Shown here: positions 5,904 through 25,402 of the stretch, in pieces
Layout of the letters: the number at the start of each line of letters is the position of its first letter
Position numbering within the stretch: position 1 is the stretch's first letter
From: Acaryochloris marina S15
GTDB lineage: Bacteria; Cyanobacteriota; Cyanobacteriia; Thermosynechococcales; Thermosynechococcaceae
DNA length: 32,000 bases
Direction: 5' to 3'
Assembly: GCF_018336915.1 (NCBI RefSeq)
Contig: NZ_CP064923.1
Span: 3,600,001 to 3,632,000 of the forward strand
Made by a program: the position numbers and the translations under genes
The notes under the pieces: generated by a model
What the model saw: the letters and a program-made list of their open reading frames with translations, nothing else
The model's database searches: none
What the model was told of the DNA's origin: nothing

Positions 5904-5937
5904 GTCGTAGTTGATACAGAATGAGTTGAATAGAGAC

Positions 5938-6650: not shown

Positions 6651-6713
6651 TAAGACTCTCTCCGACTCAAACTCTTCTTCCTTGTAACGTACCGTGTCAA
6701 ATCTGACAAGTGA

Positions 6714-7184
6714 ATGGGAAACCTGTGGTTAGGGCCAAATAGACTTTTTTGGCGACCTGACAATCCTTTTATCCAATACAAACTAGGGAATATGGCTCCA
6801 ACAAAACCCAGGCCCCCCGTTCAAGTTATTGATTCTTTTCTCACTCAGCAAGATATTTTGAGTGCCTTAGTGGTTTGGATTATTCTCGAAGGGTTTAGCT
6901 TTATTCTCTTGCCCAACTTCACCCTCATCTCCGGGGAGAATAAAACCCTGACCTGGGTTTTGATTACTACCCCTCTGGGTATCGCTGGGTCGATCATCAT
7001 TGGTATTTGTTCAAGCTGTTTGCAATACTGCCATGTGCGACTGCATAAAGCCGATCCTAAAAAAAAGCTCTTGGTTGCCTTCGCGAATATGGGTAGTTGG
7101 CTGGGCTTGGCAGGAATCGGGTTTCCCCTGATCGTTGTGGGCCTAGAATTTTGGCTGCTGATTGTTCACGGTATTGATAGTTAA
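6714..7184 (+). CDS. hypothetical small membrane protein
   Basis: 156-aa ORF with ATG start and about 4 hydrophobic segments (LSALVVWIILEGFSFILLP, WVLITTPLGIAGSIIIGIC, WLGLAGIGFPLIVVGLEFWLLIV). No recognisable family. Confidence 0.5.
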   Translation: MGNLWLGPNRLFWRPDNPFIQYKLGNMAPTKPRPPVQVIDSFLTQQDILSALVVWIILEGFSFILLPNFTLISGENKTLTWVLITTPLGIAGSIIIGICSSCLQYCHVRLHKADPKKKLLVAFANMGSWLGLAGIGFPLIVVGLEFWLLIVHGIDS

Positions 7185-7244
7185 CCCATTTGCGGGAAAA
7201 ACCTACAGTGTTTAGGGTGTGAGGTGATACGGAAAAGATTCAAT

Positions 7245-8195
7245 CTATTGCCCATCCTTCAGCCAGTAGGGGTCTTCCGTAAAGACAATGTCGATTTCAG
7301 GGAACGGATGTAAATCTGCGATCGCATCTGCAAACTTCTGCCTCAACTGGTCGAGTTCTTGCACCCGCTCAACCGCAAACTCAGCAGGGACGAGAAGCTG
7401 AATAAAGACATACAGCACTCGTCCTTGAACCATCATCTGCAAATGAAATCGATCGATGGGGTGTTTTTGACTGCGGGCAACTTGGGCAATGGTCTTGCGA
7501 ATCTCTCGGTCCAACTCGCTTTCTGGAGCAACGCCTAATAGTTGATTGACCCCTTCAAATACAGTGCGTAACGGTAGGGGGATGATAACCAGCACCAAAA
7601 GAGCGACTAGCAGCGGGTCAACGTAAGGGAGATAAATATTCCAAGCGGTGTCTTGCAGTAACATCGTCACCACAAAGGTCAAGGCAACTGCGCTACTAAT
7701 ACAGCCATCCACCGTCCAGTCTCGGGCTTCAACCTCTAGCAACGGTAAGTTCAACCGTCGGGCATAGCGATGCATCAAGATGGCAAAGGTAAAACACCCC
7801 ATTGTGGACAGGGTAGCATAGGCCAAGGCTAAGCCCACGACAAGATCTCGTCCTCCATGCAGCAAGTCTTCTATCGCCGATACGAAAGCAAACAAGCTGA
7901 CGGATAGAACAATAATGCCCTTAATCGTATTAATAAAAGGCTCAAATCCGTAATAGCCAAACTGGTAGCGACGACTGGGGCCTTCCTGGATCAGAGCTGC
8001 TACTTTGAGACTGACAAAGCTCATGGTCATGGTCATCAGGGAGTAAAACCCATCCAGCAAGATAGCTCCAGAATGGGTATATAGCCCAAACACCCCACCC
8101 AACACGGCAAAAATAGCCGATCCTATGATCGATAGAGTCAACGCCCATTGCTCTTGGGTGCCCTGATCCGGCGGTGTTGTTGTCGTAGCTATCAT
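7245..8195 (-). CDS. cation diffusion facilitator (CDF) family transporter
   Basis: 316 aa. Six-TM N-terminal domain plus a cytoplasmic C-terminal domain. The FGYYGFEPFINTIKGIIVLSVSLFAFVSAIEDLL segment is typical of CDF TM3. Lies 18 nt downstream of the methyltransferase gene on the same strand. Confidence 0.8.
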   Translation of the reverse strand: MIATTTTPPDQGTQEQWALTLSIIGSAIFAVLGGVFGLYTHSGAILLDGFYSLMTMTMSFVSLKVAALIQEGPSRRYQFGYYGFEPFINTIKGIIVLSVSLFAFVSAIEDLLHGGRDLVVGLALAYATLSTMGCFTFAILMHRYARRLNLPLLEVEARDWTVDGCISSAVALTFVVTMLLQDTAWNIYLPYVDPLLVALLVLVIIPLPLRTVFEGVNQLLGVAPESELDREIRKTIAQVARSQKHPIDRFHLQMMVQGRVLYVFIQLLVPAEFAVERVQELDQLRQKFADAIADLHPFPEIDIVFTEDPYWLKDGQ

Positions 8196-8213
8196 TTCAC
8201 TGCCTATCTGTGA

Positions 8214-9494
8214 CTAACGGGAGGACAACTGTTCATACCCTGGCCATTCCAGCCAAACAACTTCTTCTCGCAGTTGTTCGCCCGTGACACTGGATAAACG
8301 AGTTCGAAACAGCTCGACGCCCCGGACTTCATAGCCGAGTTCTTCAGCAATGGCGGCCAACAGCTCTCCTGTTCGAATTAAAACCTGGAGAAAAGAAGCC
8401 TGATCACCCACAACATAGGCCAGTTGGGCTCCCGGCTTTAGAATAGGGCGCAAGTTCGCAAAATGGCGCTTCATGCCCCCAAAGTAGAGGGCGGTGACCC
8501 TATGATATAACTTCTCAAACCCCGAATCTTTGTCCATTTCCAAGCGACGGCGTTCGATAGTCGCGGCGAGCTGAGTGACTTGCGGTGTGTTTGCCACCCA
8601 TAAATCATCCCGATCGGCGGCAAACGCATTGCGGGTATTCGAGCGGAGCAATGACTGTTTATAGGCTTTTAAGTCGGATGGATCCTGAAGAAACCCTAGC
8701 AGTACCGACTCTAACCGCGTGGTGCGGGTGTAGTCTTTTTCATTCGGATAGGGGGGAGAGGTAATCACCGCATCAATGGATTCTGGCTGAATCACTCGGG
8801 TTAAATCCCTGGCATCCTGGTGATGGCAAACCGTCGGCGGGGGGCAATCGATGCCACCTAAGTCTACGGCCATCGCCAAAACCTGCTGATGCCAAGCGGT
8901 TAAAACGGGAGCATCCTGTTTGCGCTGGCGGCTGATACCGACTTCTGGGGCAAATCGCAGGTTACTGGCGGTATGGACACTGGTATGGGCCAGGGCAAGC
9001 TGGAGGAGAGGTCGCAGTTGAGGATTCCGTTCGGCATCGATAGCATCCCGCAAGACCAGACATTTATGGAGGGGCAGATCGCCAATGGAGTTTTTGAGCA
9101 GCAGCGATTGTGCCTCTGGTGCCAGCTTTTTTAGGTGGGTTGTATTTTTAGGTGTAATGTCGCGGGAGAGGAGATAGCAAATCCGTTCTGCGGCTCCTCG
9201 CACTTGATCTGGATCAGCGGTCCAGGTGGTTTTGGTGCGGGAGGCAAACCAGGACATGGGAGTCGCCTCCACTCCCACAGCAGGAATCCCTTGTTTCTTG
9301 GCTTCTACAATCGTGGTCCCAGTGCCACAAAAAGGATCTAGGAGGGTGCTGTTCGCCGTTAGACCGAACTTATCAATATAGGTCCGGACCAAATGGGGTG
9401 GAAAGGACAAGATAAAGCGATACCAATCATGAAAACTGCGATCGCTCTCCTGCAAGCGATTCAGATTGAGATCCTTGGGATTAGAGGCGTCCAT
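8214..9494 (-). CDS. SAM-dependent N6/N4-type (SPPY motif) methyltransferase, DNA-methylase-like, no adjacent restriction gene
   Basis: 426 aa. SAM motif I LLDPFCGTGTTIVEAKKQG near the N-terminus and catalytic motif IV AVITSPPYPNEKDY about 190 aa later (alpha-type order). Its ATG overlaps the TAA of the upstream SDR by 1 nt (TAATG at 9492-9496). Confidence 0.75.
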   Translation of the reverse strand: MDASNPKDLNLNRLQESDRSFHDWYRFILSFPPHLVRTYIDKFGLTANSTLLDPFCGTGTTIVEAKKQGIPAVGVEATPMSWFASRTKTTWTADPDQVRGAAERICYLLSRDITPKNTTHLKKLAPEAQSLLLKNSIGDLPLHKCLVLRDAIDAERNPQLRPLLQLALAHTSVHTASNLRFAPEVGISRQRKQDAPVLTAWHQQVLAMAVDLGGIDCPPPTVCHHQDARDLTRVIQPESIDAVITSPPYPNEKDYTRTTRLESVLLGFLQDPSDLKAYKQSLLRSNTRNAFAADRDDLWVANTPQVTQLAATIERRRLEMDKDSGFEKLYHRVTALYFGGMKRHFANLRPILKPGAQLAYVVGDQASFLQVLIRTGELLAAIAEELGYEVRGVELFRTRLSSVTGEQLREEVVWLEWPGYEQLSSR

Positions 9495-10309
9495 TAAGAG
9501 GATTGCGATCTCGTCTGGGTAACAATCCGATCAAAATACCAGTTCAGTCCTGGAGCTAGAACGCTGTGTAGTTTGGCCAATAATCCCATTTCCAATCCAG
9601 GAGCCACCACAAACTGGTTATTTTTTACCCCTTGGACAATCTTTTGGGCCACATCTTCCGGCTGCCACATTTCCGCAGAGGCGGTAATGTTCTTCGTCTC
9701 TGGGGGTTTTGTTTTATTTTCCGCTTCCAGTTGGGGGGTATCCGTATCGGGAGGATAGACAATTGACAAGCCAATCCCAGTCCCTTTCAATTCTCCCCGC
9801 AAGGATTCAGCCAACCCCCGCAGTGCAAACTTGCTGGGGCTGTAAGGGGTATATCCAAAGAGCCCCACTAGTCCTGCCCCTGACGAAATCAACACAATAT
9901 GTCCCCGGTGACGCTCTTCCATTAGGGGCAAAACCGCTTTAACGGCATACAAAGTGCCAAAGTAATTGACCGCCATCGTTTGCTCAAAGACTTCGAGGGG
10001 AACATCTTGGAAATAACCTGGACGGGCCATACCTGCAGCGGTCATTAAAATATCGGGTGGTCCCAGTTGTGCAGTTGCAGTGTAAATAGCTTGGTTTAAG
10101 GCTTCTCGGTCAGCGACATCCGCCTCTAAAGCTAAAACTTGCTGGCCGGACTGGACTGCTTTAATGTCCTGAGCGGCTATCTCTAATTGACTAGGAGTGC
10201 GGGCAATCAGGGAAATATTTGCCCCATGACTGGCTAAGAGGCAAGCGGTAGCCTTACCAATACCACTCGATCCACCCGTAATCATGACATGGCGTTGATC
10301 AAAGTCCAT
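9494..10309 (-). CDS. SDR oxidoreductase, 3-ketodihydrosphingosine reductase (KDSR/Tsc10)-like
   Basis: The track ORF starts at TTG 10321; the ATG is at 10309 ([19 protein letters not shown]). Catalytic YSPSK. The C-terminal block [45 protein letters not shown] parallels human KDSR as I recall it ([43 protein letters not shown]). Confidence 0.8.
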   Translation of the reverse strand: [271 protein letters not shown]

Positions 10310-10362
10310 CCGTTGACTCAATAGTTGTCCTTAACGATAGAAATTACCCCGAACGCTCATCC

Positions 10363-11034
10363 CTATCGATGAACAATCTGTCGCAGCAGATAATTCCAGA
10401 TCTCCGGGATGGGGTGGCGAGGCTGACTCAGATGGGAAGTTTCTCCCGTAAAAGCCATGTTCCATTGTCCTTGCTCATGGACCAGTTTAGTTAACCCACA
10501 GGTGGGAAAGCGAACGGGAGAGCGCTGATCGACCAGTCCCCAAGCGGCTCCCTTGCCAATTAACTCATGGGTAACGATGAGCAGCGGCCCTGAAAAGGTC
10601 TCCACCAATTGCTGAAGCGCTTTTCCTGCCCGGGCAAGCGCCTCTGCTTCAGTTTCTGGGAACGGGGGAATGATATGGCTCCGGTAATGTCGATCAATTT
10701 GAGGGAAGCGATCGGCCATCTCACCAACAGGCAGCGGTTCTGGACAACGCTTAAACAGCTTGGAACTCATATGTTCTCCCAATCCAGCCTCCAGATGGAT
10801 GGGCAAATTCAAAGCCGTTGCTGTATGGACTGCCGTCACTACGGTTCGTAAAAAAGGAGAAGCAACGATATTCTCGATGGGTTCTGACTTAAGACACCGA
10901 GCCACATCCTGAGCCTCCACCACCCCTGCCGCTGAGAGACCTGGATCATGGGGACGTTCTGCCCGTTTGCGCCAGCCTAAGTCAGCATAATCTTGCCGAT
11001 GGCCATGGCGTGCAATCCAGACTACTTCAGACAT
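10363..11034 (-). CDS. histidine phosphatase (phosphoglycerate-mutase-like) family protein
   Basis: 223 aa. The N-terminal catalytic RHG motif (VWIARHGHRQD), the downstream ASPFLRTVVTA and the LLIVTHELIG second His are typical of branch-1 histidine phosphatases. Confidence 0.85.
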   Translation of the reverse strand: MSEVVWIARHGHRQDYADLGWRKRAERPHDPGLSAAGVVEAQDVARCLKSEPIENIVASPFLRTVVTAVHTATALNLPIHLEAGLGEHMSSKLFKRCPEPLPVGEMADRFPQIDRHYRSHIIPPFPETEAEALARAGKALQQLVETFSGPLLIVTHELIGKGAAWGLVDQRSPVRFPTCGLTKLVHEQGQWNMAFTGETSHLSQPRHPIPEIWNYLLRQIVHR

Positions 11035-11048
11035 ATTGGCACCCCAAA

Positions 11049-12383
11049 TTAGGCAGGGATTTCAGTCTCTATTTGAGACAGAGCAGAAGCAAGGGTCTCT
11101 ACGGTTTGGCGAATTTGGGCTTCCGTATGGGTGCTACTCAGGAAAAAGCGGAGTCGAGCCTCATTTTGGGGCACCACAGGGAAGGTCATAGGTTGGACAT
11201 TAATCCCTTGGTGAAAGAGCTGCTGGGATAGATGCAGCGCTTTGAGGGTATCGCCCACCATCACGGGAATAACAGCCGAACCTTGACTGGTCCCGGTGTT
11301 CAACCCTTTTTCTTTAGCTAAGTCTAGAAATAATTGAGCCCGAGCATGAAGCCGAGCCACGCGCTCTGGTTCTTGCTTTAGGACCTGTAGTGCCGCCAAA
11401 GACGCAGCCGTATTGGCAGGGGTAATGCCAATGCTATAGATAAAGCCGGGTGCCGTACATTTGAGGTATTCAATCAAAGGCTGGGAACCAGCAATATAGC
11501 CTCCACAGCTGGCAAAGGACTTACTGAGGGTGCCCATCCAAATATCAACGGTTTTAGGGTCAATACCAAAATGCTCACTAATACCCTGACCGTGCTCGCC
11601 CAAAACCCCAATCGAGTGGGCTTCATCCACCATTAGAAAAGCTTTATGGCGTTCTTTGAGTTCAATAAATTCGGGTAAATCGGGAATGTCGCCATCAGCA
11701 CTGTACACCCCTTCAATCACCACCAAAACTCTCTGATAGCGTTGCCGATGCTGCTTCAAGAGTCTTTCTAGATCTGCTGTATCATTATGGGCAAAGGACA
11801 TGGCCCGTGCACCTGACAGCATACATCCGAGAAAAATGCTGTTGTGGCTATAGGCATCGTAAAGAATCAGGTCATCACGGCCAAATAAATGTCCAATTGT
11901 GGTGACGTTGGTACCATGACCCGCGACGTAGAGAACGGCGTCATCTACACCAATAAAGTCTGCAATTCCTTGTTCAAGCTCTAAATGTAAGGCTTTCTCG
12001 CCAGAGACGGGGCGGCTAGCTGAGACTGAAGTGCCATAGCGATCAATGGCTTGTTTGGCGGTTTCTGAAACAGTTGGATGTCCGGCTAGCCCTAAATAGT
12101 TATAGCTGGAAAAATTGATCAGCTCTTTGCCATCAATGCAGGTTGTATCTCGAGCAATCCCTTCATGGACAGAGAAATAAGGGTTGCGGATATCATTCGC
12201 TTGCAGTTGGGCTTGCTGCTCTTTGAGCTGAAGATATTCAGGATAGAGATCGAAGCGATAATGTTCGGGAGGAATTTCGGGTTCAGATTCTGCTTTTTTC
12301 TGCAATAATTCCGCCAGCAATTCGCGTTTTTCTTCTGCGGAGAGATGATCCAGGGAATTAGAGGAATTACTCATGGGCAACAT
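11049..12383 (-). CDS. PLP-dependent alpha-oxoamine synthase, serine palmitoyltransferase-like
   Basis: 444 aa. NPYFSVHEGIARDTTCIDGKELINFSSYNYLGLAGHP, DEAHSIG and the PLP-lysine context GTLSKSFASCGGY (SPT-like GTFSKS rather than BioF GTFGKG). The start overlaps the carrier-protein stop by 17 nt, or 8 nt if Met4 is the start. Confidence 0.9.
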   Translation of the reverse strand: MLPMSNSSNSLDHLSAEEKRELLAELLQKKAESEPEIPPEHYRFDLYPEYLQLKEQQAQLQANDIRNPYFSVHEGIARDTTCIDGKELINFSSYNYLGLAGHPTVSETAKQAIDRYGTSVSASRPVSGEKALHLELEQGIADFIGVDDAVLYVAGHGTNVTTIGHLFGRDDLILYDAYSHNSIFLGCMLSGARAMSFAHNDTADLERLLKQHRQRYQRVLVVIEGVYSADGDIPDLPEFIELKERHKAFLMVDEAHSIGVLGEHGQGISEHFGIDPKTVDIWMGTLSKSFASCGGYIAGSQPLIEYLKCTAPGFIYSIGITPANTAASLAALQVLKQEPERVARLHARAQLFLDLAKEKGLNTGTSQGSAVIPVMVGDTLKALHLSQQLFHQGINVQPMTFPVVPQNEARLRFFLSSTHTEAQIRQTVETLASALSQIETEIPA

Positions 12384-12822
12384 TATGCTCTGACAACATC
12401 GCGTTCAGCAGGCCATCCACTTCATCGTCACTCAATACATCCAATTTGGACAGGAGTTCATCGGCATCTGCGGGTAATGCTGAAGTAGTGGGAGAACTGC
12501 CTTCATTATCGGTTACTAAGTGCTCTGATAATTCACGAATATTGGAATAATCTAGAACAAGCATGGGATCCAAACGGCGACCCAGAAAATGTTCCAGTTC
12601 ACCTGAAACATTGACGACTTCTACGGAGTTCATTCCGTAGTCAATGAAATCCACATCGATATCAATTTCCTCTGGACTCATTTCCAAAGAAGTTGCCAAG
12701 TGTTTTTTTAACCAGGCTTGAATGTCTGCCAATGTAGGGGAAGTCTGCAGGGGCGAAACAGTTCCCTGAGACTGTGCTTCCGCTACAGCGACCGTGCTTT
12801 GATAGTTATCCTGGATTGGCAT
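12367..12822 (-). CDS. free-standing acyl carrier protein with extended termini
   Basis: 151 aa. Phosphopantetheine-site region IDVDFIDYGMNSVEVVNVSGELEHFLGRRL (Ser within GMNS, a variant of G-x-D-S). About 40 extra aa at the N-terminus and about 50 at the C-terminus (DADELLSKLDVLSDDEVDGLLNAMLSE). Confidence 0.8.
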   Translation of the reverse strand: MPIQDNYQSTVAVAEAQSQGTVSPLQTSPTLADIQAWLKKHLATSLEMSPEEIDIDVDFIDYGMNSVEVVNVSGELEHFLGRRLDPMLVLDYSNIRELSEHLVTDNEGSSPTTSALPADADELLSKLDVLSDDEVDGLLNAMLSEHNVAHE

Positions 12823-12892
12823 ATTGTTTTTACTCTAATTGCTTAAACAACAGGTTAAACCGAATTGTGAATTTAAGTTAAAACTTCGGTTC

Positions 12893-12921
12893 ATCATAAA
12901 AGATTTATTTAACAGCAACAA
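12893..12921 (-). promoter_or_regulatory. candidate sigma70-type promoter for the ACP-AOS sub-operon
   Basis: Minus strand reads TTGTTG (12921-12916), a 17-nt spacer, then TATGAT (12898-12893), about 70 nt upstream of the ACP ATG and inside the only large gap (363 nt) of the array. Motif match only. Confidence 0.25.
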
Positions 12922-13185
12922 GGTGGCATGTAGAGATTACTCAATTGGCCCATTCTTTAAAGTCCTTAGAACTAAATGTTCTAGTCTCCTTAGTAATGCC
13001 GTTGATCAATCTAGCCCTTTGCCGTTATGGGAAAGTTATAACTTAGTCCAGATGGGGTGGGAGTGATCAAGGTTGCTTCAGTCGAAACTGCCTCATGTTA
13101 CGCATGGCTGATGTCTTTCCTGAGATAAGTGTGTAAGTTGAGACTGACTTTCTGCCTGAAAAAGTTCCAAGGTTTACTGTTTTTT

Positions 13186-15066
13186 TTAGGCGCGAGGCAT
13201 GCTCTTGGCTACACTCTCTAAGTCTCCCTCTAGAAATTTGGCTCTACAAGTAAACCGCTGAATTTTACCACTAGATGTCTTGGGAATACTGCCGGGTTTG
13301 AGCAGCAGCAGGGCATGAATCTGCAGGTCATGGTCTTTGGCAACCGCCCGACGAATTTGGGTGAGGATGTCTTTTTCGACGGCGGCAGGTTCTGAGTCTG
13401 AGGTCAGGGTTGTGGGAGGGACAAAATTATTGAGCTGAGCGGTTTGGGAGGATGGCTTCTTGCCATTTTTTTGATAGCGATTGATATAGTTCCGCTCCAA
13501 CTCCGCCACTACTACTAGCCGTTCTTCACCTGCTTCTGTAATCGAAAATGCAGCGGCACAATTGGGTCGAATACCGGGATAGCTTTGGACCACGGTCAAC
13601 TCAATGTCCTGGGGATAATGATTACGGCCGTTGATAATAATCACATCCTTTAAGCGACCCGTCACAAAAAGCTCGGAACCCACCAAAAAGCCATAGTCTC
13701 CAGTCCGTAGAAATGGGCCAGACCCGGTATCTGCTAAATGGGCCTGAAAGGTTTCTCCAGATACTTCTGATTGCCGCCAGTATCCCTGGGCAATGCTTTC
13801 GCCAGACACCCATATTTCGCCGACTTCTTCTGCTGAACATTGTTGGAGGGTTTCAGGATTGGCAATAACGATTTCCTGGCCTTGGAGGGCGGAGCCGCAA
13901 CCCACTAAGGTGCGGGCATCGGCATCTTTAGAATGGGCAGAGACAACTTGATGTTGTTCTAGGGCTGCGCCTTGGACTGTTTTTAGAGCGGGTTTGGCAT
14001 TTCTCTGTCCCCCGGAAACGATCAGGGTGGCTTCGGCAAGGCCATAGCAGGGGAAAAATGCTTCAGACCGAAATCCACAGGGGGCAAATTTGGTGGCAAA
14101 GTCTTCAAGGGTTTGAGCGCTGATGGGTTCTGCTCCGTTAAAGGCCACCCGCCAGGAGCTCAGGTCCAATCCCTGGAGCTGCTCTGGTTTGACTTTGCGC
14201 AAGCATAAATCATAGGCAAAATTTGGCCCACCGCTGGTAGTGGCTCGATAGCGAGAAATCGCTTGTAACCAGCGAATAGGACTTTGCAAGAACATAAAGG
14301 GGGACATCAACGCCACGGGAAACCCTCCATATAAAGGCTGCAAAATCCCACCGATCAAACCCATGTCGTGATAAGGCGGTAGCCAAATGACCCCTTGGCA
14401 TTGGGAACTATGCTCAAAGCATTGATGAATTAGAGATAGATTCTGTAAGAGATTGTCATGGGTGATCATCACCCCTTTTGGCGTTGCAGTTGATCCAGAG
14501 GTGTATTGAAGAAAGGCTAAATCTTGTCCTTGGGGATGAATCTCTTGCCAGGCTTGGCGGGGTTCGGTGACGCTGAGGCTATCGGTCGCCAGCCACTTGA
14601 GGGCGCTCAACTCTGCTGCATCAATCAGCTGTCGTTCGAGTTTCGACAGGATTTGGGACGTTGTCAGGGCAAAAATGGCTTGGGAATCAGCAATCACGCT
14701 TTGCAAGCGCATCAGGGAGCGATTGGGACGGGGTGGATAAATCGGGACTGCCGTGACGCCTGCATAGAGGCAGCCAAAGAAGGCGGCAACATATTCTAAT
14801 CCGGGCTGATACACCAATAGGGCTCGGTCACCCGGTTGGCAAGCAGACTGTAACGCGGCTGCGATCGCACGGGCCTTAGCATCCAACTCTGCATAAGTGA
14901 GATGGAGGGTTTCATCTTCACCATCGACTAAAAAGGTAAAGCCTTGATGATCTGGCTGGTGAGCCGCTCGATAGCGGAGTAAATCCACCAAACTTTCCAC
15001 CTTCGGTGGGCAAGTTCCTTCGACCTTGGCGTCCCAATTTGTTGTTTCAGCCACGTTATACTCCAT
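13186..15066 (-). CDS. fatty acyl-AMP ligase (FAAL)
   Basis: The track ORF (662 aa) extends into the upstream gene. The plausible start is ATG 15066 (MEYNVAETT...), 13 nt after the upstream stop. FAAL hallmarks: LVDLLRYRAAHQPD, FLQYTSGSTATPKGVMITHDNLL, GPNFAYDL, YGLAEATL, LRTGDYGF, PKTSSGKIQR. Confidence 0.9.
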   Translation of the reverse strand: MEYNVAETTNWDAKVEGTCPPKVESLVDLLRYRAAHQPDHQGFTFLVDGEDETLHLTYAELDAKARAIAAALQSACQPGDRALLVYQPGLEYVAAFFGCLYAGVTAVPIYPPRPNRSLMRLQSVIADSQAIFALTTSQILSKLERQLIDAAELSALKWLATDSLSVTEPRQAWQEIHPQGQDLAFLQYTSGSTATPKGVMITHDNLLQNLSLIHQCFEHSSQCQGVIWLPPYHDMGLIGGILQPLYGGFPVALMSPFMFLQSPIRWLQAISRYRATTSGGPNFAYDLCLRKVKPEQLQGLDLSSWRVAFNGAEPISAQTLEDFATKFAPCGFRSEAFFPCYGLAEATLIVSGGQRNAKPALKTVQGAALEQHQVVSAHSKDADARTLVGCGSALQGQEIVIANPETLQQCSAEEVGEIWVSGESIAQGYWRQSEVSGETFQAHLADTGSGPFLRTGDYGFLVGSELFVTGRLKDVIIINGRNHYPQDIELTVVQSYPGIRPNCAAAFSITEAGEERLVVVAELERNYINRYQKNGKKPSSQTAQLNNFVPPTTLTSDSEPAAVEKDILTQIRRAVAKDHDLQIHALLLLKPGSIPKTSSGKIQRFTCRAKFLEGDLESVAKSMPRA

Positions 15067-15079
15067 CCTGACTACAGGA

Positions 15080-15862
15080 TTATGAATTCGTTTTCGATTT
15101 GAATAGCCCTTGTAACCGCTGATCCCATTTCTTCTGATTGGTCTCTGCATCTTTGATATAGGGAGACCAAGCAATCAATTGGATAATGAACTGATTCAGT
15201 AGGGAAGCAGGGAATTTTAGAGGACGGACAATATCGACAAAAAGGACGACCCGAACTTCATCGGTATTATTCCAGGCCTCATGCTCGAAGGAGTCATCGA
15301 ACACTAGGCTTTTGCCTTCTTGCCAATGGCGCACATCATCTCCCACTCGAATCCCGCAGTCTGAAGCGGCCTCGGGAATGACCAGTCCCAGATGGTAGCG
15401 CAGAACGCCATTAAAGGGGCCACGATGGGGCGGTATTTGCTTTTGTGGCAGCAAAATAGAGAAAAAAGCAGTCTTTACACCGGGAATACTGACTAATAGT
15501 TTCGCCGTTTCCGGACAAAGACGACAGTTTTGCTCTGCCGTCACCCCGTAGGCATAAAAGAAAAAGGTTTTCCAGCGCTGATCATTCGTGATGTTGTACT
15601 GATCGGGGGAAATGTCTTGAAAATTAGGGAGGTCATCTCTATATTTAAGAATTTCATCTAATTCCTTACGGATAACCTGCCAATTATCCTCAAAAGTTTT
15701 TACCCATTCAAACTGAGCGGTATCAAAGAACGTCGAGTTTCCCACCAGGGAAGCAGACCGAATGATGCGCTCTAATTGACGCAACAGATTTTCACCTGCT
15801 TTTAGGGCGACCTCACGGTTCTTAGTTTTGAAATCGGTGTAAAACTGGCTCAATGCACTCAT
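15080..15862 (-). CDS. aspartyl/asparaginyl beta-hydroxylase (AspH/LpxO/OlsC) family Fe(II)/2OG dioxygenase, paralog 1
   Basis: 260 aa with ATG start. Conserved block KTAFFSILLPQKQIPPHRGPFNGVLRYHLGLVIP...HWQEGKSLVFDDSFEHEAWN, the two-His AspH-type core. No TM segment. Confidence 0.85.
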   Translation of the reverse strand: MSALSQFYTDFKTKNREVALKAGENLLRQLERIIRSASLVGNSTFFDTAQFEWVKTFEDNWQVIRKELDEILKYRDDLPNFQDISPDQYNITNDQRWKTFFFYAYGVTAEQNCRLCPETAKLLVSIPGVKTAFFSILLPQKQIPPHRGPFNGVLRYHLGLVIPEAASDCGIRVGDDVRHWQEGKSLVFDDSFEHEAWNNTDEVRVVLFVDIVRPLKFPASLLNQFIIQLIAWSPYIKDAETNQKKWDQRLQGLFKSKTNS

Positions 15863-15935
15863 AAGTTAGGGGGTAGAAATCAACAATTGGGCGCATTAAC
15901 ACTCCAGCCAATGTACACCATGATCTGTCTCGATG

Positions 15936-16682
15936 CTATTGGGACCCTTTAGCCGCTGATAACGCATCAAATCGCTGGTCCCATTTCTTTTGATTAGCGG
16001 CTGCACCTTGAATATAAGGGGACCAGGAAAAGAGCTGAATCACCGCTCGGTTCAACAGAGAGATCGGGAATTTAACCGGCCTCACCACATCCAAAAACAG
16101 GACGACACGTACACTATCCGCATCGTTCCAAGCCGTATGTTCAAAAGAGTCATCAAACACTAGGCTTTTACCTTCTTGCCAATGACGAATGTCCTTGCCG
16201 ACGCGAATGCCACATTGGTCCGTGGCCTCTGGCACCATCAACCCGAGGTGATAGCGCAGGACACCGTTATAGGGACCTCGATGGGGTGGGATGCGTTGGT
16301 GGGGTAGCAAGATCGAGAAAAAGGCTGTTTTTAACCCAGGGATTTGTTCAATCAACCGGGTGGTTTCTGGGCAGCGATCGCAGTTCTTTTCAGCCTTGAT
16401 GCCATAGGCATAAAAGGCAAACATTTTCCACTGGGTATCTTTAGTGAGTTCAGAGTCATATTCCACCAATTCTTCAAAATTGGGCAATGCCTCTTGGTAT
16501 TGGAGGACCTGTTCCAACTCTTGACGAATCGTTCGCCAATTCTTTTCCAAGAGAGAGACCCAACTAAACATATTGGGGTTAAAAAAGGTGTTGTGGCCCA
16601 CCAGGGACGAACGCGAAACCAACCCGCCAATATGTTTGCGCATTAAAGTTTCGAAAAATTCTTTCACGGGACTGTATTCCAA
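15936..16682 (-). CDS. AspH/LpxO family Fe(II)/2OG dioxygenase, paralog 2
   Basis: 248 aa from TTG 16682, or 235 aa from ATG 16643. KTAFFSILLPHQRIPPHRGPYNGVLRYHLGLMVP...HWQEGKSLVFDDSFEHTAWN. Clearly paralogous to 15080-15862. Confidence 0.85.
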   Translation of the reverse strand: MEYSPVKEFFETLMRKHIGGLVSRSSLVGHNTFFNPNMFSWVSLLEKNWRTIRQELEQVLQYQEALPNFEELVEYDSELTKDTQWKMFAFYAYGIKAEKNCDRCPETTRLIEQIPGLKTAFFSILLPHQRIPPHRGPYNGVLRYHLGLMVPEATDQCGIRVGKDIRHWQEGKSLVFDDSFEHTAWNDADSVRVVLFLDVVRPVKFPISLLNRAVIQLFSWSPYIQGAAANQKKWDQRFDALSAAKGSQ

Positions 16683-16711
16683 TGATGTGTTGACTATCGT
16701 AATAAATCCTT

Positions 16712-16742
16712 AATTCTGATGGCTGAGTGGGACATCAGAATT
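16712..16742 (-). other. intercistronic hairpin between hydroxylase paralogs 3 and 2
   Basis: 10-bp stem aattctgatg / catcagaatt with an 11-nt loop, starting 4 nt after the paralog-3 stop. Confidence 0.35.
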
Positions 16743-16745
16743 AGA

Positions 16746-17576
16746 TTAGTGAGATTTCATAATCGCACCTAGGCGTTGTTCCCACTGGTTCTGAAGCTTT
16801 TTAGCATCCTGAACAAAGGGCGACCAAGAAATTAAGCGAATAAGGGTTTTGTTGAGGACAGAGACGGGAAATTGAAGGGGTCGGATCACATCGACAATGA
16901 GTACGACCCGAACCTCGTTGCTATCGTTCCAGACCTCATGGGGAAATCGATCATCAAAGACTAAACCTTGCCCCTGCTGCCAATGACGAATTTGATCCGC
17001 TACCCGCAGACGGCATTGGGTTTCGGGTTGGGGCACTTTTAGGGCCAGATGGTACCGGATGACTCCCTTGAAAACCCCGCAATGCTCGGGAATATGTTTG
17101 TGGGGCAACAAGATGGAGAAGAAGGCCGTTTTCATGCCCGGAATGGATTCGATCAGTTGGCTGGTTTGAGGACAGTGAGCACAGTTTTGAGCCGCTTTTA
17201 CCCCAAAGGCATAGAAGAAAAAGGTCTTCCAGCGATCGTCTTGGGTGAGACGGTACTGATCTGGCGATAAATCTTGGAAGTTGGGTAGCTCATCCTGATA
17301 CTGGAGAATATCATCCAGTTCTTGGACAATGATGTGCCAGTTGTTTTCTAGCCTCTTGATCCAGGGGAACTGTTGAGCTTCGATAAAAGGCGTATTTCCC
17401 ACTAGGGAGTAGGACTCGATCAGACCTTCGAATCGCCGCAATAACTGCTCGGCTCCCTTTAAAAAGAGCTGACGACTTTTAGTCTGCCAATTTCCATCGT
17501 GTTGACTGAAAGCATTCATAGCACTGGAGGTTTGAGTAGACAATCTGTCCTTGGCTTTCACTAAGGATGACGACAT
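16746..17576 (-). CDS. AspH/LpxO family Fe(II)/2OG dioxygenase, paralog 3 (most divergent)
   Basis: 276 aa with ATG start. KTAFFSILLPHKHIPEHCGVFKGVIRYHLALKVP...HWQQGQGLVFDDRFPHEVWN. Longer N-terminus than the other two. Confidence 0.85.
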   Translation of the reverse strand: MSSSLVKAKDRLSTQTSSAMNAFSQHDGNWQTKSRQLFLKGAEQLLRRFEGLIESYSLVGNTPFIEAQQFPWIKRLENNWHIIVQELDDILQYQDELPNFQDLSPDQYRLTQDDRWKTFFFYAFGVKAAQNCAHCPQTSQLIESIPGMKTAFFSILLPHKHIPEHCGVFKGVIRYHLALKVPQPETQCRLRVADQIRHWQQGQGLVFDDRFPHEVWNDSNEVRVVLIVDVIRPLQFPVSVLNKTLIRLISWSPFVQDAKKLQNQWEQRLGAIMKSH

Positions 17577-17595
17577 CAGATCGGGGAACGTTAAA

Positions 17596-19389
17596 TTACG
17601 ATTGATTCGCGGCCATAGGGGCCATCAAATCTGAGATATTGCCTTGGGTTTCTTGTTTCCACTCAGCAACGGGTTGAAAACTGTTTTCTAAAAATTTAGT
17701 TCGACAAGCGCGACGCTGGATCTTGCCACTAGAGGTTTTGGGGATGGCACCCGGCTTGAGAAGCAACACGGCATAGACTTCAGCCATATGGTCCTCGGCA
17801 ATGGCCAAACGAATTGCTCCGATAACCTCTTCGACGGGTAAGCGACGGAAAAAGTTTCGTTCCACTTCATGGACAATCACCAGATGCTCTTCACCATTCA
17901 GGGGAATGGAAAAAGCAGCGCCATGGTTGGGCCGTAGGGCCGGATGGCATTGCTCAACGGTTTGTTCAATCAGCTGGGGATATTGGTTACGCCCCCAGAT
18001 AATCATCAAGTCTTTAATACGGCCCGTGATATAGACTTCACCATCCTGGACAAAGCCTAGGTCGCCGGTACGTAGAAAGGGTCCTTCGCCGGTATCAGCC
18101 AAGTGGGCCTGAAAGGTCTCGGCGGTGATGTCAGGTCTGTTCCAATAGCCTTTGCCGACGCCGGCCCCAGACACCCAAATCTCACCGACTTGGTTTTCCG
18201 CACATTTAGTTCGGGTATCGGGATTTGCGATCGCAACCTTATCCCCTAACAACATGCGGCCACAGCCGATAATCGCCTGGGCTTTGTCAGACTCCGGCTC
18301 TACAGACACCACTTTATTTTCGGCCAGGGCCGTACTGTCGAGATAGCGAATCACGGGTGGCTCTGACTTCAGGCCCCCGGAGATAAATAAGGTGGTTTCA
18401 GCCATGCCATAACAGGGATAAAAGGCTTCCCGGCGGAAGCCACAGGGGCCAAAAAAGTCCACAAACTTATCCAGGGTATCGGCCTTGATGGGCTCTGCCC
18501 CAGAAAAGGCTACTTCCCATTTGCTCAGATCCAGCTTGTCTCGCTGCTGCGGCTTTACCTTTTGGCACAGTAAATCATAGGCAAAGTTGGGTCCGCCGCT
18601 GGTGGTCGCCCCATATTTAGACACGGCTTCTAGCCACAAAATCGGTTTTTGGATCAGGGAAATCGGCGACATCAGGGTCACTGGGAACCCCCCATACAGG
18701 GGTTGAAGAACACCCCCCACCAGACCCATATCGTGAAATAGCGGTAGCCAAATCACGCCTTGACTCGTGTCTGAATGGCCAAAGCCCTCATAAATCAATT
18801 TAGAGTTATGGAGCATATTGCCGTGGGTGACCATCACCCCTTTCGGATCTCCAGTGGACCCCGAGGTGTATTGCAAAAAGGCCAACGTGTCCGGCTCTAA
18901 GTCGGGCTGCACCCAAGCAGAGGCCTGATCCATGGGCACGGTATCCGTGGCCAGCCAGGTCAACTTATTTAAGTACGGCGCTAAATCAGGATTCTTTTTT
19001 AGCTGGGTTTTGAGATGCTCCAAAAATCCTGCGGTGGAGATCAGTACAGTCGCTTCCGAGGCTCGGGCGCGGATTTGGAGTTTGGCAATGGCTGCTGATT
19101 TACGGGGAGGATTATCGGTGACGGCCACTACCCCGGCATAGAGACAGCCAAAAAAGGCAGACACAAATTCTAGTCCGGCATCGTAGGGATAGACGACCAG
19201 AACGTTGGTGCCACGGGCGGTCAGGGCTTGTATTGCGGCTGCGATCGCACGGGCTTGCAAATCCAAGGTGGCATAGGTGAGAGTGCCGGATTCAGTTTTA
19301 CCATCGGCTAAAAAGGTATAGGCATCTAGATCAGACTGGTGCTGAGACCGCTCTCGAAGCAAATCGACTAGAGTTGAAGGCTGGGTCAT
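17596..19389 (-). CDS. fatty acyl-AMP ligase (FAAL)
   Basis: 597 aa with ATG start. LVDLLRERSQHQSD, FLQYTSGSTGDPKGVMVTHGNML, GPNFAYDL, YGMAETTL, LRTGDLGF, PKTSSGKIQR. First gene of the array. Confidence 0.9.
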   Translation of the reverse strand: MTQPSTLVDLLRERSQHQSDLDAYTFLADGKTESGTLTYATLDLQARAIAAAIQALTARGTNVLVVYPYDAGLEFVSAFFGCLYAGVVAVTDNPPRKSAAIAKLQIRARASEATVLISTAGFLEHLKTQLKKNPDLAPYLNKLTWLATDTVPMDQASAWVQPDLEPDTLAFLQYTSGSTGDPKGVMVTHGNMLHNSKLIYEGFGHSDTSQGVIWLPLFHDMGLVGGVLQPLYGGFPVTLMSPISLIQKPILWLEAVSKYGATTSGGPNFAYDLLCQKVKPQQRDKLDLSKWEVAFSGAEPIKADTLDKFVDFFGPCGFRREAFYPCYGMAETTLFISGGLKSEPPVIRYLDSTALAENKVVSVEPESDKAQAIIGCGRMLLGDKVAIANPDTRTKCAENQVGEIWVSGAGVGKGYWNRPDITAETFQAHLADTGEGPFLRTGDLGFVQDGEVYITGRIKDLMIIWGRNQYPQLIEQTVEQCHPALRPNHGAAFSIPLNGEEHLVIVHEVERNFFRRLPVEEVIGAIRLAIAEDHMAEVYAVLLLKPGAIPKTSSGKIQRRACRTKFLENSFQPVAEWKQETQGNISDLMAPMAANQS

Positions 19390-19480
19390 AGGGGCAATAT
19401 CCGCAATAGCAAAATCCTAAGTTTGAGAACATAAACCCGCTAGTACTTACATCACGACAAAGGCGGATCTGCATCACATT

Positions 19481-19510
19481 ACTGTAGTTGAGGGATGCTT
19501 TAGACTTCAA
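19481..19510 (-). promoter_or_regulatory. candidate promoter of the lipid array
   Basis: Minus strand reads TTGAAG (19510-19505), an 18-nt spacer, then TACAGT (19486-19481), about 90 nt upstream of the FAAL ATG. Motif match only. Confidence 0.2.
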
Positions 19511-20177: not shown

Positions 20178-21191
20178 ATGAATAAGTTTTGGCAACACAA
20201 AACGATTTTTCGCCTCCTGCTGCTGTTCTGCATTGGGCTAGGACTCGTTTTTCTCTTTCAAAAAATCAATCTCCAAGGTCGTGATCTGCTAGATGCATTT
20301 CAGCGGTTTAGCATCGAATCCCTATTTCTAATGTTAGGGGTTACTTTGGTACAAATGGCCTTTCAGGTAACTCGTCTCTGGGTACTTTGTCCTCAATCGG
20401 CAGGAGTGAGTTGGGCCCAAGCCGCAAATACTTACGTATCGGGCCAATTTATTGGCAATTTTGTTCTCAGCCAAGCGGGGCATGCCGTTAAAATTGCCCT
20501 GTTGCGCAAGGATAAAGATACCAAGGGCCGAAAAATTGATGCAGCTGAGGCTACAGCCGTCATCCTAGTGGATAAAATGCTAGATGTCGGCATTCTGGTC
20601 ACCCTAGCTGTTCTATCAGCATTACAAGTCTCCGTCGGTTTGCCCCAAGTCGATTGGTGGGAAAAAGGTATTATTTTGCTGATCGGCATCCCTTTTCTAG
20701 GGGTCGCATTGTGGGCCATCCTCCGAGGTTTGCGCCAACGGTTTCCAAAATTACGTCAATGGTTCCGAAAGTTTAAGATCGGACTAGCTGTAATTCGTAA
20801 TCCTCTCCAAATTCGTAATGCTGCGGTCATGGACTTGGGAGACTGGTTTACGGAATGTTTACTGTTGCAAATGCTATGCATGGCTCAAGGTCATGTCCTA
20901 TCTTTACCCCAACTTTTGATCTGCTTGTTTGTTCTGAACTTGGGGCTGACGGTGCCTACGACTATGGCCAACCTGGGTACCTACGAAGCTGCCCTAGCCT
21001 TTTCTCTCAATGGTATGGGGGTGCCCCTGGCGCAAAGTGTGGTGATTGCAACGATGTTTCATGCTTATCAACTATTCAGTTTGCCTGTGTGGACGTTTAT
21101 CCAAAAGTTGAGTTATCGCTTCTCACCCAAGTTAGACTCGACACTGTCCATTCCCATTCCTCAAAAACGCACAAAAGTTACCTCCAAGTAA
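20178..21191 (+). CDS. MprF-TM / lysyl-phosphatidylglycerol-synthase transmembrane-region (UPF0104, flippase-like) family protein
   Basis: 337 aa, about 8 TM segments. The N-terminal pattern FRLLLLFCIGLGLVFLFQKINLQGRDLLDAFQRFSIESLFLMLGVTLVQMAFQVTRLWVL fits the LPG_synthase_TM family layout. Divergent from the FAAL array. Confidence 0.6.
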   Translation: MNKFWQHKTIFRLLLLFCIGLGLVFLFQKINLQGRDLLDAFQRFSIESLFLMLGVTLVQMAFQVTRLWVLCPQSAGVSWAQAANTYVSGQFIGNFVLSQAGHAVKIALLRKDKDTKGRKIDAAEATAVILVDKMLDVGILVTLAVLSALQVSVGLPQVDWWEKGIILLIGIPFLGVALWAILRGLRQRFPKLRQWFRKFKIGLAVIRNPLQIRNAAVMDLGDWFTECLLLQMLCMAQGHVLSLPQLLICLFVLNLGLTVPTTMANLGTYEAALAFSLNGMGVPLAQSVVIATMFHAYQLFSLPVWTFIQKLSYRFSPKLDSTLSIPIPQKRTKVTSK

Positions 21192-25386: not shown

Positions 25387-25402
25387 TGTGATTTAAATCA
25401 CG
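25387..25402. promoter_or_regulatory. CRP/FNR-family (SyCRP-type) binding-site candidate
   Basis: TGTGA-TTTAAA-TCACG matches 9 of 10 positions of TGTGA-N6-TCACA. The inner 14 bp gtgatttaaatcac form a perfect palindrome. Sits in a 1.15-kb non-coding spacer, about 570 bp from either flanking start. Confidence 0.3.

Follow-up and report, generated by a model that had tools for sequence, protein, structure and literature searches.

A conserved gene cluster of predicted fatty acyl-AMP ligases, an acyl carrier protein and an alpha-oxoamine synthase in Acaryochloris marina, a candidate assembly line for a sphingoid-base analogue

Introduction

The joining of an acyl thioester to an amino acid by an alpha-oxoamine synthase (AOS), followed by the action of a ketoreductase, is already known from the sphinganine, capnine and fumonisin-type routes. 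In the AasR-AcpR-SPT module of Alpha-, Beta- and Gammaproteobacteria, an adenylating enzyme loads a dedicated acyl carrier protein (ACP), the genes lie beside that for a pyridoxal phosphate (PLP)-dependent AOS, and reduction of the 3-keto group follows (PMC9386255). A gene array with a similar layout was found in the cyanobacterium Acaryochloris marina S15, in a stretch of 32,000 nucleotides (NCBI RefSeq assembly GCF_018336915.1, contig NZ_CP064923.1, positions 3,600,001 to 3,632,000) that is here called the window and to which coordinates refer unless stated otherwise. The array includes genes for two predicted fatty acyl-AMP ligases (FAAL1 and FAAL2), three AspH-type hydroxylases, a free-standing ACP, an AOS, a histidine-phosphatase-superfamily protein (His-phosphatase) and a short-chain dehydrogenase/reductase (SDR) resembling 3-ketodihydrosphingosine reductase (KDSR).

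Reports of sphingolipids in cyanobacteria are confined to two genera, Moorea and Scytonema (PMC8895605; PMC6272925). A first-pass annotation of this DNA, made from the sequence alone, knew of no characterised sphingoid-base pathway in cyanobacteria, in agreement with a 2022 study according to which these organisms have yielded no characterised enzyme of sphingolipid or long-chain-base synthesis (PMC8895605). In a 2025 review of FAALs in natural products, neither an AOS nor PLP nor a sphingoid partner is mentioned, and no description of a FAAL-ACP-AOS cluster in cyanobacteria was found in the full-text literature searched, which covered few subscription-journal papers, such that an earlier description is possible.

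The cluster was found to be real, conserved and uncharacterised, and the chemical inference of the first-pass annotation to be sound. On balance, the product of the locus is probably a hydroxylated long-chain vicinal amino alcohol, an analogue of a sphingoid base, built on a carrier-protein assembly line. New or uncharacterised are the AOS clade, the pairing of an AOS with FAALs, the presence of a eukaryote-like KDSR in cyanobacteria, and the module made up of AspH-type hydroxylases and FAAL1.

Results

Organisation and conservation of the gene cluster

The eleven co-directional open reading frames (ORFs) of the first-pass annotation were all recovered on the minus strand, from 19389 to 7245 (Table 1). 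The ten spacers between them were recomputed as 19, 63, 73, 13, 363, -17, 14, 41-53, -1 and 18 nt, in agreement with the earlier values, the range for the gap on the AOS side of the SDR gene being set by the choice of a TTG or an ATG start for the SDR. FAAL2 starts at ATG 15066 (626 aa, as in relatives), and the ORF as listed extends to TTG 15174. A hidden Markov model scan of each ORF against Pfam upheld all of the domain calls, and no ketosynthase (KS), nonribosomal peptide synthetase condensation or adenylation domain or N-acyltransferase was detected among the eleven ORFs with Pfam and NCBIfam models, as the annotation had also noted. Segments resembling transmembrane helices are absent from the nine enzymes of the cluster, apart from one borderline stretch in FAAL1.

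The same array is syntenic in A. marina NIES-2412, MBIC11017 (CP000828.1, 702-723 kb) and MBIC10699, and in Acaryochloris metagenome-assembled genomes (MAGs); hence, the arrangement is not due to chance. The gene order is also conserved in more distant relatives, as described below.

The genes are probably transcribed as two units, one from FAAL1 to FAAL2 and the other from the ACP to the SDR gene (plus the methyltransferase and CDF genes), and the 363-nt spacer between FAAL2 and the ACP gene fits this division. An alignment of four Acaryochloris-type loci showed that the 5' half of the spacer has diverged and that its last approximately 140 nt are near-invariant. This part, upstream of the ACP gene, is predicted to be a conserved leader or an internal promoter region. 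The conserved leader (12823-12960, minus strand), which directly precedes the ACP start, holds a 7-bp hairpin, AACCGAA...TTCGGTT. Its fold was not significant when compared with shuffled sequences (z-score -1.17), no counterpart was found outside Acaryochloris, no credible conserved small ORF was found in the 363-nt spacer, and no Rfam family reached the gathering score in a scan of the whole window, spacer included. A promoter and terminator scan of positions 6500-21500 gave fewer promoter-like sites than were obtained with shuffles, and the ends of the operon were not defined by it.

The alpha-oxoamine synthase belongs to a distinct clade

An exact-sequence look-up of the window AOS gave no entry, and its relatives were used in its stead. 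The AOS shares 97% identity with an A. marina NIES-2412 protein and scored 187.9 bits against a cut-off of 19.7 on PF00155 (Aminotran_1_2), placing it in the AOS superfamily of PLP fold type I. The motif GTLSKSFASCGGY, to which the first-pass annotation had drawn attention, is present, and its lysine aligns with the PLP lysine, Lys244, of the serine palmitoyltransferase (SPT) of S. multivorum. Residues Lys288, His180, Asp253 and His256 align with Lys244, His138, Asp210 and His213 of that enzyme (numbering and roles from PMC10196870), and these catalytic residues, namely the PLP lysine, the stacking histidine, the N1 aspartate and the O3' histidine, are invariant in the alignment of the family.

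The AOS scored below the cut-off of every curated subfamily model. Its scores on the NCBIfam SPT models were 351 (cut-off 640) for SPT-CFB, 299 (500) for SPT-beta and 239 (670) for SPT-alpha, and those on other models were 371.6 (426.45) for bioF (TIGR00858), 329 (460) for KBL, 252.5 (338.55) for ALAS and 181 (428) for the CqsA type. As a positive control, the SPT of Roseomonas reached 613 bits on its own SPT model (NF047599, cut-off 500). The bioF model is not specific, as the Roseomonas SPT scored 323 and an AOS of Priestia 385 on it. The ranking of the window AOS against relatives of solved structure was shallow: S. multivorum SPT, 245 bits; Thermus BioF/KBL, 234; E. coli KBL, 229; human SPTLC2, 227; Sphingomonas SPTs, 206-213; ALAS, 194; E. 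coli BioF, 184; cysteate acyltransferase, 171; and CqsA, 89.

A phylogeny, which the first-pass annotation had proposed as a check, was built by neighbour-joining (NJ) from 390 columns with 100 bootstraps, and with a limited reference set of four SPTs, three KBLs, one BioF, one HemA and several orphan AOS proteins. The window protein, 20 family members and AOS proteins of Microbulbifer and Streptomyces formed a clade with 100% support, placed outside BioF and outside a clade of SPT and KBL (91%). The window protein was roughly equidistant from all references, with identities of 29-37%, and of 30-34% to the four SPTs. The topology inside the family departs from taxonomy. A plasmid AOS of Phocaeicola had been selected to represent the SPTs of Bacteroidetes, but its sequence and tree position identified it as a Kbl, and it was used as such.

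The earlier description of the AOS as like SPT rather than BioF, KBL or ALAS is thus in need of correction: the protein is not an SPT, as it scored below the cut-offs of the SPT models and its clade is separate, and the SPT-like look of GTLSKSFASCGGY is no criterion of membership. With its catalytic residues intact and a clade of its own, the window protein is predicted to be a competent AOS, from a separate clade that is so far uncharacterised. SPT recognises the hydroxyl of serine by way of water and the PLP phosphate (PMC10196870), and for this reason no amino-acid substrate can be deduced from the AOS sequence; the same paper on the S. multivorum SPT structure offers no sequence rule for the amino-acid substrate. 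More generally, matches to Spt-like proteins should not be taken as a capacity for sphingolipid synthesis without a phylogenetic check.

Two ligase groups and the carrier protein

The top NCBIfam matches of FAAL1 and FAAL2 were FAAL models (FadD32, PRK05850, PRK12476 and PRK09192), all below cut-off, and a plasmid paralogue of FAAL2 is named 'fatty acyl-AMP ligase' by PGAP. An NJ tree of the FAAL domains, used for its topology only, resolved two groups, FAAL2 coupled to AOS and FAAL1 coupled to hydroxylase. Members of the FAAL2 group always lie beside ACP/AOS genes and are the sole FAAL of single-FAAL clusters (Trichodesmium, Dapis and Pseudanabaenales). The neighbour of FAAL1 is a hydroxylase gene, of the AspH type or the FA_hydroxylase type, in all ten intact loci. 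Because the ACP is fused to the N-terminus of the AOS in most homologues, or FAAL, ACP and AOS are joined in one protein, the acyl donor of the AOS appears to be acyl-ACP.

Of the cluster, only FAAL2 (13186-15066) also occurs on plasmids of A. marina: four of them, for example pREB6 (NC_009931.1, 44010-45890) and pREB2 (NC_009927.1, 106311-108191), carry copies that are 83% identical in DNA. The lone plasmid FAAL gene adjoins a divergent metallothionein/SmtB pair, downstream of cobW/zigA-type GTPase genes, with extra copies of cysS, thrS, RNR and metE in the surroundings, and the region looks like a zinc-limitation paralogue island. No obvious difference in a zinc or other metal site was seen when FAAL2 was aligned with the plasmid copy.

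The KDSR-type reductase

The SDR carries the classical motifs TGGSSGIG and YSPSK. Its best match in the Protein Data Bank (PDB) was TSC10, the 3-ketodihydrosphingosine reductase of Cryptococcus (8jat; 113 bits, E 2e-31, residues 8-242), and the C-terminal block AENKTKP/AENRTKP, in which the first-pass annotation had seen a parallel to KDSR, does lie within the TSC10 alignment. In its motifs, its closest characterised SDR and its C-terminal AEN(K/R)TKP, the protein thus has the sequence features of KDSR/TSC10 (KO K04708). Many cyanobacterial orthologues, 60-73% identical, are named 3-dehydrosphinganine reductase by JGI and UniRef, a name based on the KO.

Orthologues of the SDR are adjacent to AOS orthologues in about 10 genera. 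The gene directly follows that for the AOS, at 57-64% identity, in Oxynema, Calothrix, a Pseudanabaenales MAG, Microcystis LSC13-02, Nostoc minutum, Nostocales LEGE 12452 and Nostoc C117 (loci L004, L019, L024, L031, L069, L075 and L089), and it lies about 1 kb after it in a Nostocaceae MAG and about 3 kb after it in Moorena. Lyngbya PCC 8106 carries the orthologue elsewhere in its genome, on a different contig from the AOS cluster.

The hydroxylases

The three hydroxylases are members of the Asp_Arg_Hydrox superfamily. OlsC was the best NCBIfam match of all three (252, 266 and 294 bits for hydroxylases 1, 2 and 3, cut-off 450), followed at a distance by LpxO (115, 134 and 146 bits, cut-off 500), such that none belongs to either equivalog family. 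No transmembrane segment was predicted in any of them. Hydroxylase 3 aligns to the catalytic domain of human AspH with conservation of PHxGP and FEHE, which we take to be the two iron-binding histidine motifs of AspH-type hydroxylases. The three proteins are mutually 51-59% identical and group with one Chloroflexaceae sequence (77%), and the triplet arose by lineage-specific duplication; the hydroxylase duplications of Lyngbya and Limnoraphis are independent of it. The substrate is probably acyl-ACP or the amino-lipid.

Distribution of the family and variation of its neighbourhoods

Relatives of the AOS at approximately 55-65% identity were found in at least 599 species genomes, one genome being scanned per species. 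They occur in many cyanobacterial orders and, outside cyanobacteria, in Planctomycetota, Acidobacteriota, Myxococcota, Desulfobulbaceae, Thiomargarita, Methylomirabilia and Chloroflexaceae. For the analysis of neighbourhoods, the window proteins were mapped onto 84 loci and all neighbouring ORFs were clustered. The constant feature of these loci is FAAL, ACP and AOS, and a FAAL adjoins or is fused to ACP-AOS in most loci with enough flank. The three functions are encoded by separate genes, as an ACP~AOS fusion, or as a FAAL~ACP~AOS fusion (Planctomycetota and Nostocales), and in some loci a polyketide synthase (PKS) replaces the simple loader.

Four arrangements were distinguished. Type A consists of FAAL1, one to three AspH-type hydroxylases (sometimes with a Rieske oxygenase), FAAL2, ACP and AOS, often with a B12-binding radical SAM/DUF4070 gene after the AOS; it is present in Lyngbya PCC 8106, Lyngbya CCY1209, Limnoraphis, Arthrospira platensis, Moorena bouillonii, a Prochloraceae MAG and a Chloroflexaceae MAG. 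A variant in Oxynema has an FA_hydroxylase-type enzyme instead of the AspH type, and genes for an SDR and a GT39 (PMT_2) glycosyltransferase follow. Type B is ACP~AOS alone, in Pleurocapsales. Type C comprises FAAL-PKS, AOS, methyltransferase, SMR, acyltransferase_3 and an ABC exporter, in Microcystis and Nostoc, and type D is the fused FAAL~ACP~AOS of Planctomycetota, often near a GNAT gene. The order FAAL1-hydroxylase-FAAL2-ACP-AOS therefore recurs in Lyngbya, Limnoraphis, Arthrospira, Moorena, Oxynema and the Prochloraceae and Chloroflexaceae MAGs, and the gene combination, which the first-pass annotation did not recognise, is not unique to the window; the conservation of neighbourhood that it had proposed to examine was found.

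Tailoring genes differ among relatives. In locus L101 a CylC-like halogenase gene lies between FAAL and ACP, and in Nostoc sp. C117 (L089) genes for a fatty-acid desaturase, a second ACP and a thioesterase surround the AOS core. This variation, with a halogenase, a desaturase, PKS modules or a B12 radical SAM enzyme standing in for the hydroxylases, suggests an assembly line for specialised metabolites no less than a pathway to membrane sphingolipids.

The Pleurocapsales ACP~AOS loci (L022, L027, L033, L034, L036-L038, L041, L043, L045, L047, L050, L051, L061 and L065) have no FAAL within 10 kb. An ORF of 323-346 aa lies directly upstream of ACP~AOS in all 15, and a related ORF of about 255 aa lies directly downstream in about eight; L070 has the downstream one only. 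Both flanking ORFs look like sigma-70-family factors, judging by eye from region 2 motifs. The AOS on the Priestia megaterium plasmid NZ_CP137804.1 (SPT-CFB 525, cut-off 640) is accompanied by a methyltransferase, an acyltransferase-family protein and an SMR transporter, a set matching that after the FAAL-PKS/AOS genes in Microcystis (L002/L003) and Nostoc. On the Roseomonas mucosa plasmid NZ_CP025195.1 (441 kb), an SPT gene lies between an ACP gene and a family-39 glycosyltransferase gene; this is the SPT used above as the control, which, with its NF047599 score and 399 bits to the S. wittichii SPT, is bona fide.

Boundaries of the cluster and flanking genes

In the related locus L100, on a more distant Acaryochloris-like contig and with an AOS that is 85% identical, FAAL1, three hydroxylases, FAAL2, ACP, AOS, His-phosphatase and SDR are followed directly by the genes that flank the array in the window, and the methyltransferase and CDF genes are missing (window 7245-9494 against L100 9729-9760). 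The window, MBIC11017, MBIC10699 and NIES-2412 all carry the methyltransferase-CDF pair. As it is gone from L100, the flanks of which otherwise match, the cluster has gained or lost the pair at its 3' end. The first-pass annotation had listed both genes along with those of the pathway; their absence from an otherwise identical cluster speaks against this, and they are probably neighbours outside the pathway. The methyltransferase resembles DNA/RNA amino-methyltransferases, with readable motifs FCGTGT (motif I) and SPPY and weak PDB matches to a modification methylase and a tRNA m2G methyltransferase. The CDF exporter scores below the cut-off on the CDF superfamily model.

The His-phosphatase is kept across the Acaryochloris clade, and its orthologues of at least 69% identity were found only in Acaryochloris/Acaryochloridaceae. 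Its next relatives, cyanobacterial proteins of 212 aa and 48% identity, were not seen in AOS clusters. The match to the phosphoserine phosphatase PspA (25 bits) is far too weak for use. The His-phosphatase is an Acaryochloris-specific addition outside the conserved core.

A gene for a divergent LPG_synthase_TM membrane protein lies upstream of FAAL1. Its counterpart adjoins FAAL1 in L001, L102 and L103 and in no other genus; it is syntenic only within Acaryochloris, and its link to the cluster is putative. On the opposite side, a GNAT gene 1.3 kb from the cluster, on the other strand, was considered as a hidden ceramide synthase and rejected, as its product resembles ArsN1/phosphinothricin acetyltransferase (PAT). 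Its sole counterpart near an AOS outside Acaryochloris is 30% identical and 6 kb away. The G+C content of the window falls to 0.29 at 25001-26000.

Table 1 Features of the window, with predicted products and supporting Pfam matches (E-values) where given
Feature	Position	Strand	Length	Remarks
FAAL1, accessory fatty acyl-AMP ligase	17596..19389	-	597 aa	AMP-binding, E 5e-63; DIP2-like C-terminal domain
Hydroxylase 1, AspH/OlsC/LpxO-type Fe(II)/2-oxoglutarate oxygenase	16746..17576	-	276 aa	Asp_Arg_Hydrox, E 3e-52
Hydroxylase 2	15936..16682	-	248 aa	TTG start (relatives called at 242-249 aa); Asp_Arg_Hydrox, E 8e-57
Hydroxylase 3	15080..15862	-	260 aa	Asp_Arg_Hydrox, E 4e-59
FAAL2, predicted loader of the ACP/AOS module	13186..15066	-	626 aa	AMP-binding, E 7e-70
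Non-coding spacer	12823..13185	-	363 nt	About 140 nt at ACP start conserved
Free-standing acyl carrier protein	12367..12822	-	151 aa	PP-binding, E 3e-14; acidic C-terminal tail
Alpha-oxoamine synthase, distinct clade	11049..12383	-	444 aa	Aminotran_1_2, E 4e-55
Histidine-phosphatase-superfamily protein	10363..11034	-	223 aa	His_Phos_1, E 6e-19; RHG motif
KDSR-type short-chain reductase	9494..10321	-	271-275 aa	adh_short, E 2.5e-50
Amino-methyltransferase-like protein	8214..9494	-	426 aa	N6_N4_Mtase/UPF0020, E 4e-11, partial (residues 28-77)
CDF metal-cation exporter	7245..8195	-	316 aa	Cation_efflux, E 5e-32
LPG_synthase_TM (MprF flippase-like) membrane protein, divergent	20178..21191	+		PF03706, E 1e-23; several transmembrane segments
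Cytokinin-dehydrogenase-like FAD protein	419-1792
Protein with MshE-related c-di-GMP-binding motif	2197-3210
SLH-domain protein	3733-5106
ArsN1/PAT-like GNAT	5355-5903
RidA-family protein	5911-6324
DUF427 protein	6366-6650
MATE exporter	21635-23011
RTX-repeat protein	23771-24817

Discussion

A possible pathway can be outlined from these assignments. FAAL2 would adenylate a fatty acid and load the dedicated ACP, as suggested by homology and by the FAAL-ACP-AOS fusions of relatives. The AOS would then condense the acyl-S-ACP decarboxylatively with an amino acid, for which serine, alanine and glycine are obvious candidates, and release a 2-amino-3-ketoalkane; the chemistry of the family and the intact PLP site argue for this step. 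Reduction of the C3 ketone to the alcohol is assigned to the SDR, in view of its closest solved relative and its conserved adjacency. The three AspH/OlsC-type Fe(II)/2-oxoglutarate oxygenases would introduce hydroxyl groups, most likely on the ACP-bound acyl chain before release, since they are soluble and since relatives have CylC- or JamB-type enzymes at the same position. CylC-like halogenases and JamB-like desaturases are enzyme types known for their action on acyl-ACP; an acyl-ACP-acting JamB-type enzyme is exemplified in the jamaicamide pathway (PMC11837247). FAAL1, with its paired hydroxylase, may constitute an accessory module in which a second or alternative (hydroxy-)acid is activated; the cluster encodes no transferase for it. 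The long-chain 2-amino-3-hydroxy lipid decorated by hydroxylases that was put forward in the first-pass annotation is thus retained in its core, as FAAL, ACP, AOS and a KDSR-type SDR fit it, and is revised as to the SPT assignment, the boundaries of the cluster and its uniqueness.

Several points weigh against this outline. Each step is drawn from homology, and the failure of the AOS on every curated subfamily model means that neither its amino-acid nor its acyl substrate is assignable from sequence. TSC10 leads the generic SDRs of the PDB by a modest margin (113 against 101 bits), an SDR within 10 kb is missing from most AOS loci, and the SDR family is not exclusive to AOS clusters, since one homologue, in Leptolyngbya, adjoins a lone KS and a cyclase. 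Known OlsC and LpxO enzymes hydroxylate the secondary acyl chains of complete lipids rather than acyl-ACP. The role of FAAL1 is unexplained by the model, and the hydroxylases together with a second FAAL would suit a two-chain, ceramide-like product better than a free base.

Such a product is the subject of another explanation, namely an independently evolved ceramide pathway, which is the main rival and is considered rather unlikely. Here the AOS would use L-serine to give 3-ketosphinganine, to be reduced by the SDR; FAAL1 would activate a second fatty acid, N-linked either directly (from acyl-AMP or acyl-ACP) or by an acyltransferase encoded elsewhere; and the OlsC/LpxO-type hydroxylases would then 2-hydroxylate the acyl chain or chains of a membrane ceramide or glycosphingolipid. 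The action of the closest named hydroxylase families on complete lipids, the strict pairing of FAAL1 with a hydroxylase, and the interchange beside FAAL1 of AspH-type and FA_hydroxylase-type enzymes, both of which include known acyl 2-hydroxylases, are in keeping with this, as is the GT39/PMT_2 gene after the SDR gene in Oxynema. The order of activating enzyme, ACP and AOS parallels both the ACP-SPT-GT39 arrangement of the Roseomonas plasmid and the ACS-AcpR-Spt genes of Rhodobacteria (PMC9386255). Members of the AOS family are present in Moorena (L023) and Scytonema (L028), genera with reported sphingolipids, and N. punctiforme, which has no sphingolipids, is reported to have only a BioF-type AOS (PMC8895605); cyanobacterial homologues of human ceramide kinase have also been noted (PMC10331486). 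Against all this, the AOS lies outside the SPT clade and failed the SPT models; neither an N-acyltransferase of the bCerS, GNAT or Lag1 type nor a CerR is encoded in the cluster, the nearby GNAT being ArsN1/PAT-like; all of its enzymes are soluble; and the patchy distribution, suggestive of horizontal gene transfer, with variable tailoring (halogenase, acetylenase-like desaturase, PKS) is typical of specialised metabolism. Mooreaside A, moreover, came from field-collected material and has no hydroxy acyl chain (PMC6272925). The broader proposal that cyanobacteria, Planctomycetota and several other phyla possess a third, independently evolved sphingoid-base/ceramide route, in which a FAAL, a dedicated ACP, an AOS clade unrelated to known SPTs and a eukaryote-like KDSR cooperate and a second FAAL replaces the ceramide synthase, is advanced as a tentative and somewhat doubtful one. 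If it is true, it would supply the missing genetic basis of the sphingolipids reported from Moorea and Scytonema, and Arthrospira, Trichodesmium, Microcystis and Acaryochloris would be expected to contain such lipids or sphinganine-analogue toxins.

Two further explanations dispense with a sphingoid base. The many family loci that consist of FAAL-ACP-AOS with no reductase within 10 kb, and the reactivity of unreduced alpha-aminoketones, could indicate that the AOS makes a diffusible alpha-aminoketone or alpha-hydroxyketone signal, like CqsA or LqsA, or an aminoketone that dimerises to an alkylpyrazine. The match to the CqsA model is real but weak, and of the AOS relatives with solved structures CqsA lies furthest away. 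In the window the AOS has a KDSR-type reductase in close translational proximity, and known CqsA/LqsA systems do not feature three hydroxylases and two long-chain FAALs; this explanation is therefore held to be highly improbable. The notion that the AOS is simply the BioF (or KBL) of the strain, amid unrelated genes, draws on the bioF model having given its highest NCBIfam score and on the naming of many homologues as 8-amino-7-oxononanoate synthase by JGI. That score is under the cut-off of a model on which a bona fide SPT and the Priestia AOS also score well, E. coli BioF is among the weaker PDB matches, the NJ tree separates the family from BioF, most relatives are fused to ACP and/or FAAL or PKS, and no bio genes are present among the window genes scanned. 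Cyanobacterial BioF has, in addition, been described as a distinct monophyletic group of 394 aa (PMC8895605). This last explanation is largely refuted and retains next to no probability.

The assembly line for a hydroxylated sphingoid-base analogue, the preferred reading, has a concrete candidate in the culturable and fully sequenced A. marina MBIC11017, where the counterpart of 9494-19389 lies at about 703.8-713.8 kb of CP000828.1. Its core is common to ecologically and commercially important genera, namely Arthrospira (Spirulina), Trichodesmium, Microcystis, Moorena and Lyngbya. Should the products be sphinganine analogues, they might serve as membrane lipids, signalling molecules or toxins of the ceramide-synthase type, and the AOS clade, often with a fused ACP or FAAL, would be a new type of chain-releasing enzyme for lipid engineering.

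Among described systems, OlsC (the ornithine-lipid acyl 2-hydroxylase) and LpxO (the lipid A acyl 2-hydroxylase) share the Pfam family and the metal-binding histidines of the window hydroxylases. The latter differ in scoring well under the equivalog cut-offs, in having no membrane anchor, and in that no ornithine-lipid or lipid A genes lie near the window cluster. In the fungal routes to fumonisin (Fum1/Fum8/Fum13/Fum3) and sphingofungin (SphA), an AOS releases a carrier-bound chain with an amino acid and an SDR reduces C3; Fe(II)/2-oxoglutarate-dependent or other oxygenases add hydroxyl groups, and a separate acid-activating ligase serves later acylation. SphA was a weak PDB match of the window AOS. 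The likeness is one of logic; the window chain would be a FAAL-loaded fatty acid rather than the product of a highly reducing PKS, the oxygenases are of the AspH type, the system is bacterial, and no condensation or esterification enzyme is present in the window cluster.

In the capnine/sulfonolipid route, a cysteate-C-fatty acyltransferase and a dehydrocapnine reductase likewise carry out an AOS condensation followed by SDR reduction to a 2-amino-3-hydroxy lipid. The cysteate acyltransferase was, however, a weaker match of the window AOS than SPT, KBL and ALAS, and close to BioF, and cysteate synthase was not among the window genes scanned. In PigH/TamD of prodiginine and tambjamine synthesis, an AOS (SerT domain) with a fused or docked ACP likewise joins a carrier-bound acyl group to an amino acid, which for TamD is L-serine (PMC4698589); the resemblance is one of layout, the substrate there being a pyrrolyl-beta-ketoacyl group whose product cyclises to a bipyrrole, whereas a FAAL-loaded fatty acyl group is expected in the window.

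The locus does not correspond to the Caulobacter-type Spt-bCerS-CerR route, as had been concluded from the first reading, for the eleven ORFs contain no GNAT or epimerase-type domain by Pfam, no direct search with bCerS or CerR sequences having been made. Compared with the AasR-AcpR-SPT module, with which it shares the carrier-based layout, the window cluster has an AOS of a different clade that failed the SPT models, activating enzymes of the FAAL rather than the FadD/Aas type, no bCerS or CerR, and a eukaryote-like reductase of the KDSR/TSC10 type rather than one of the Caulobacter CerR type; to this layout it adds hydroxylases and a second FAAL.

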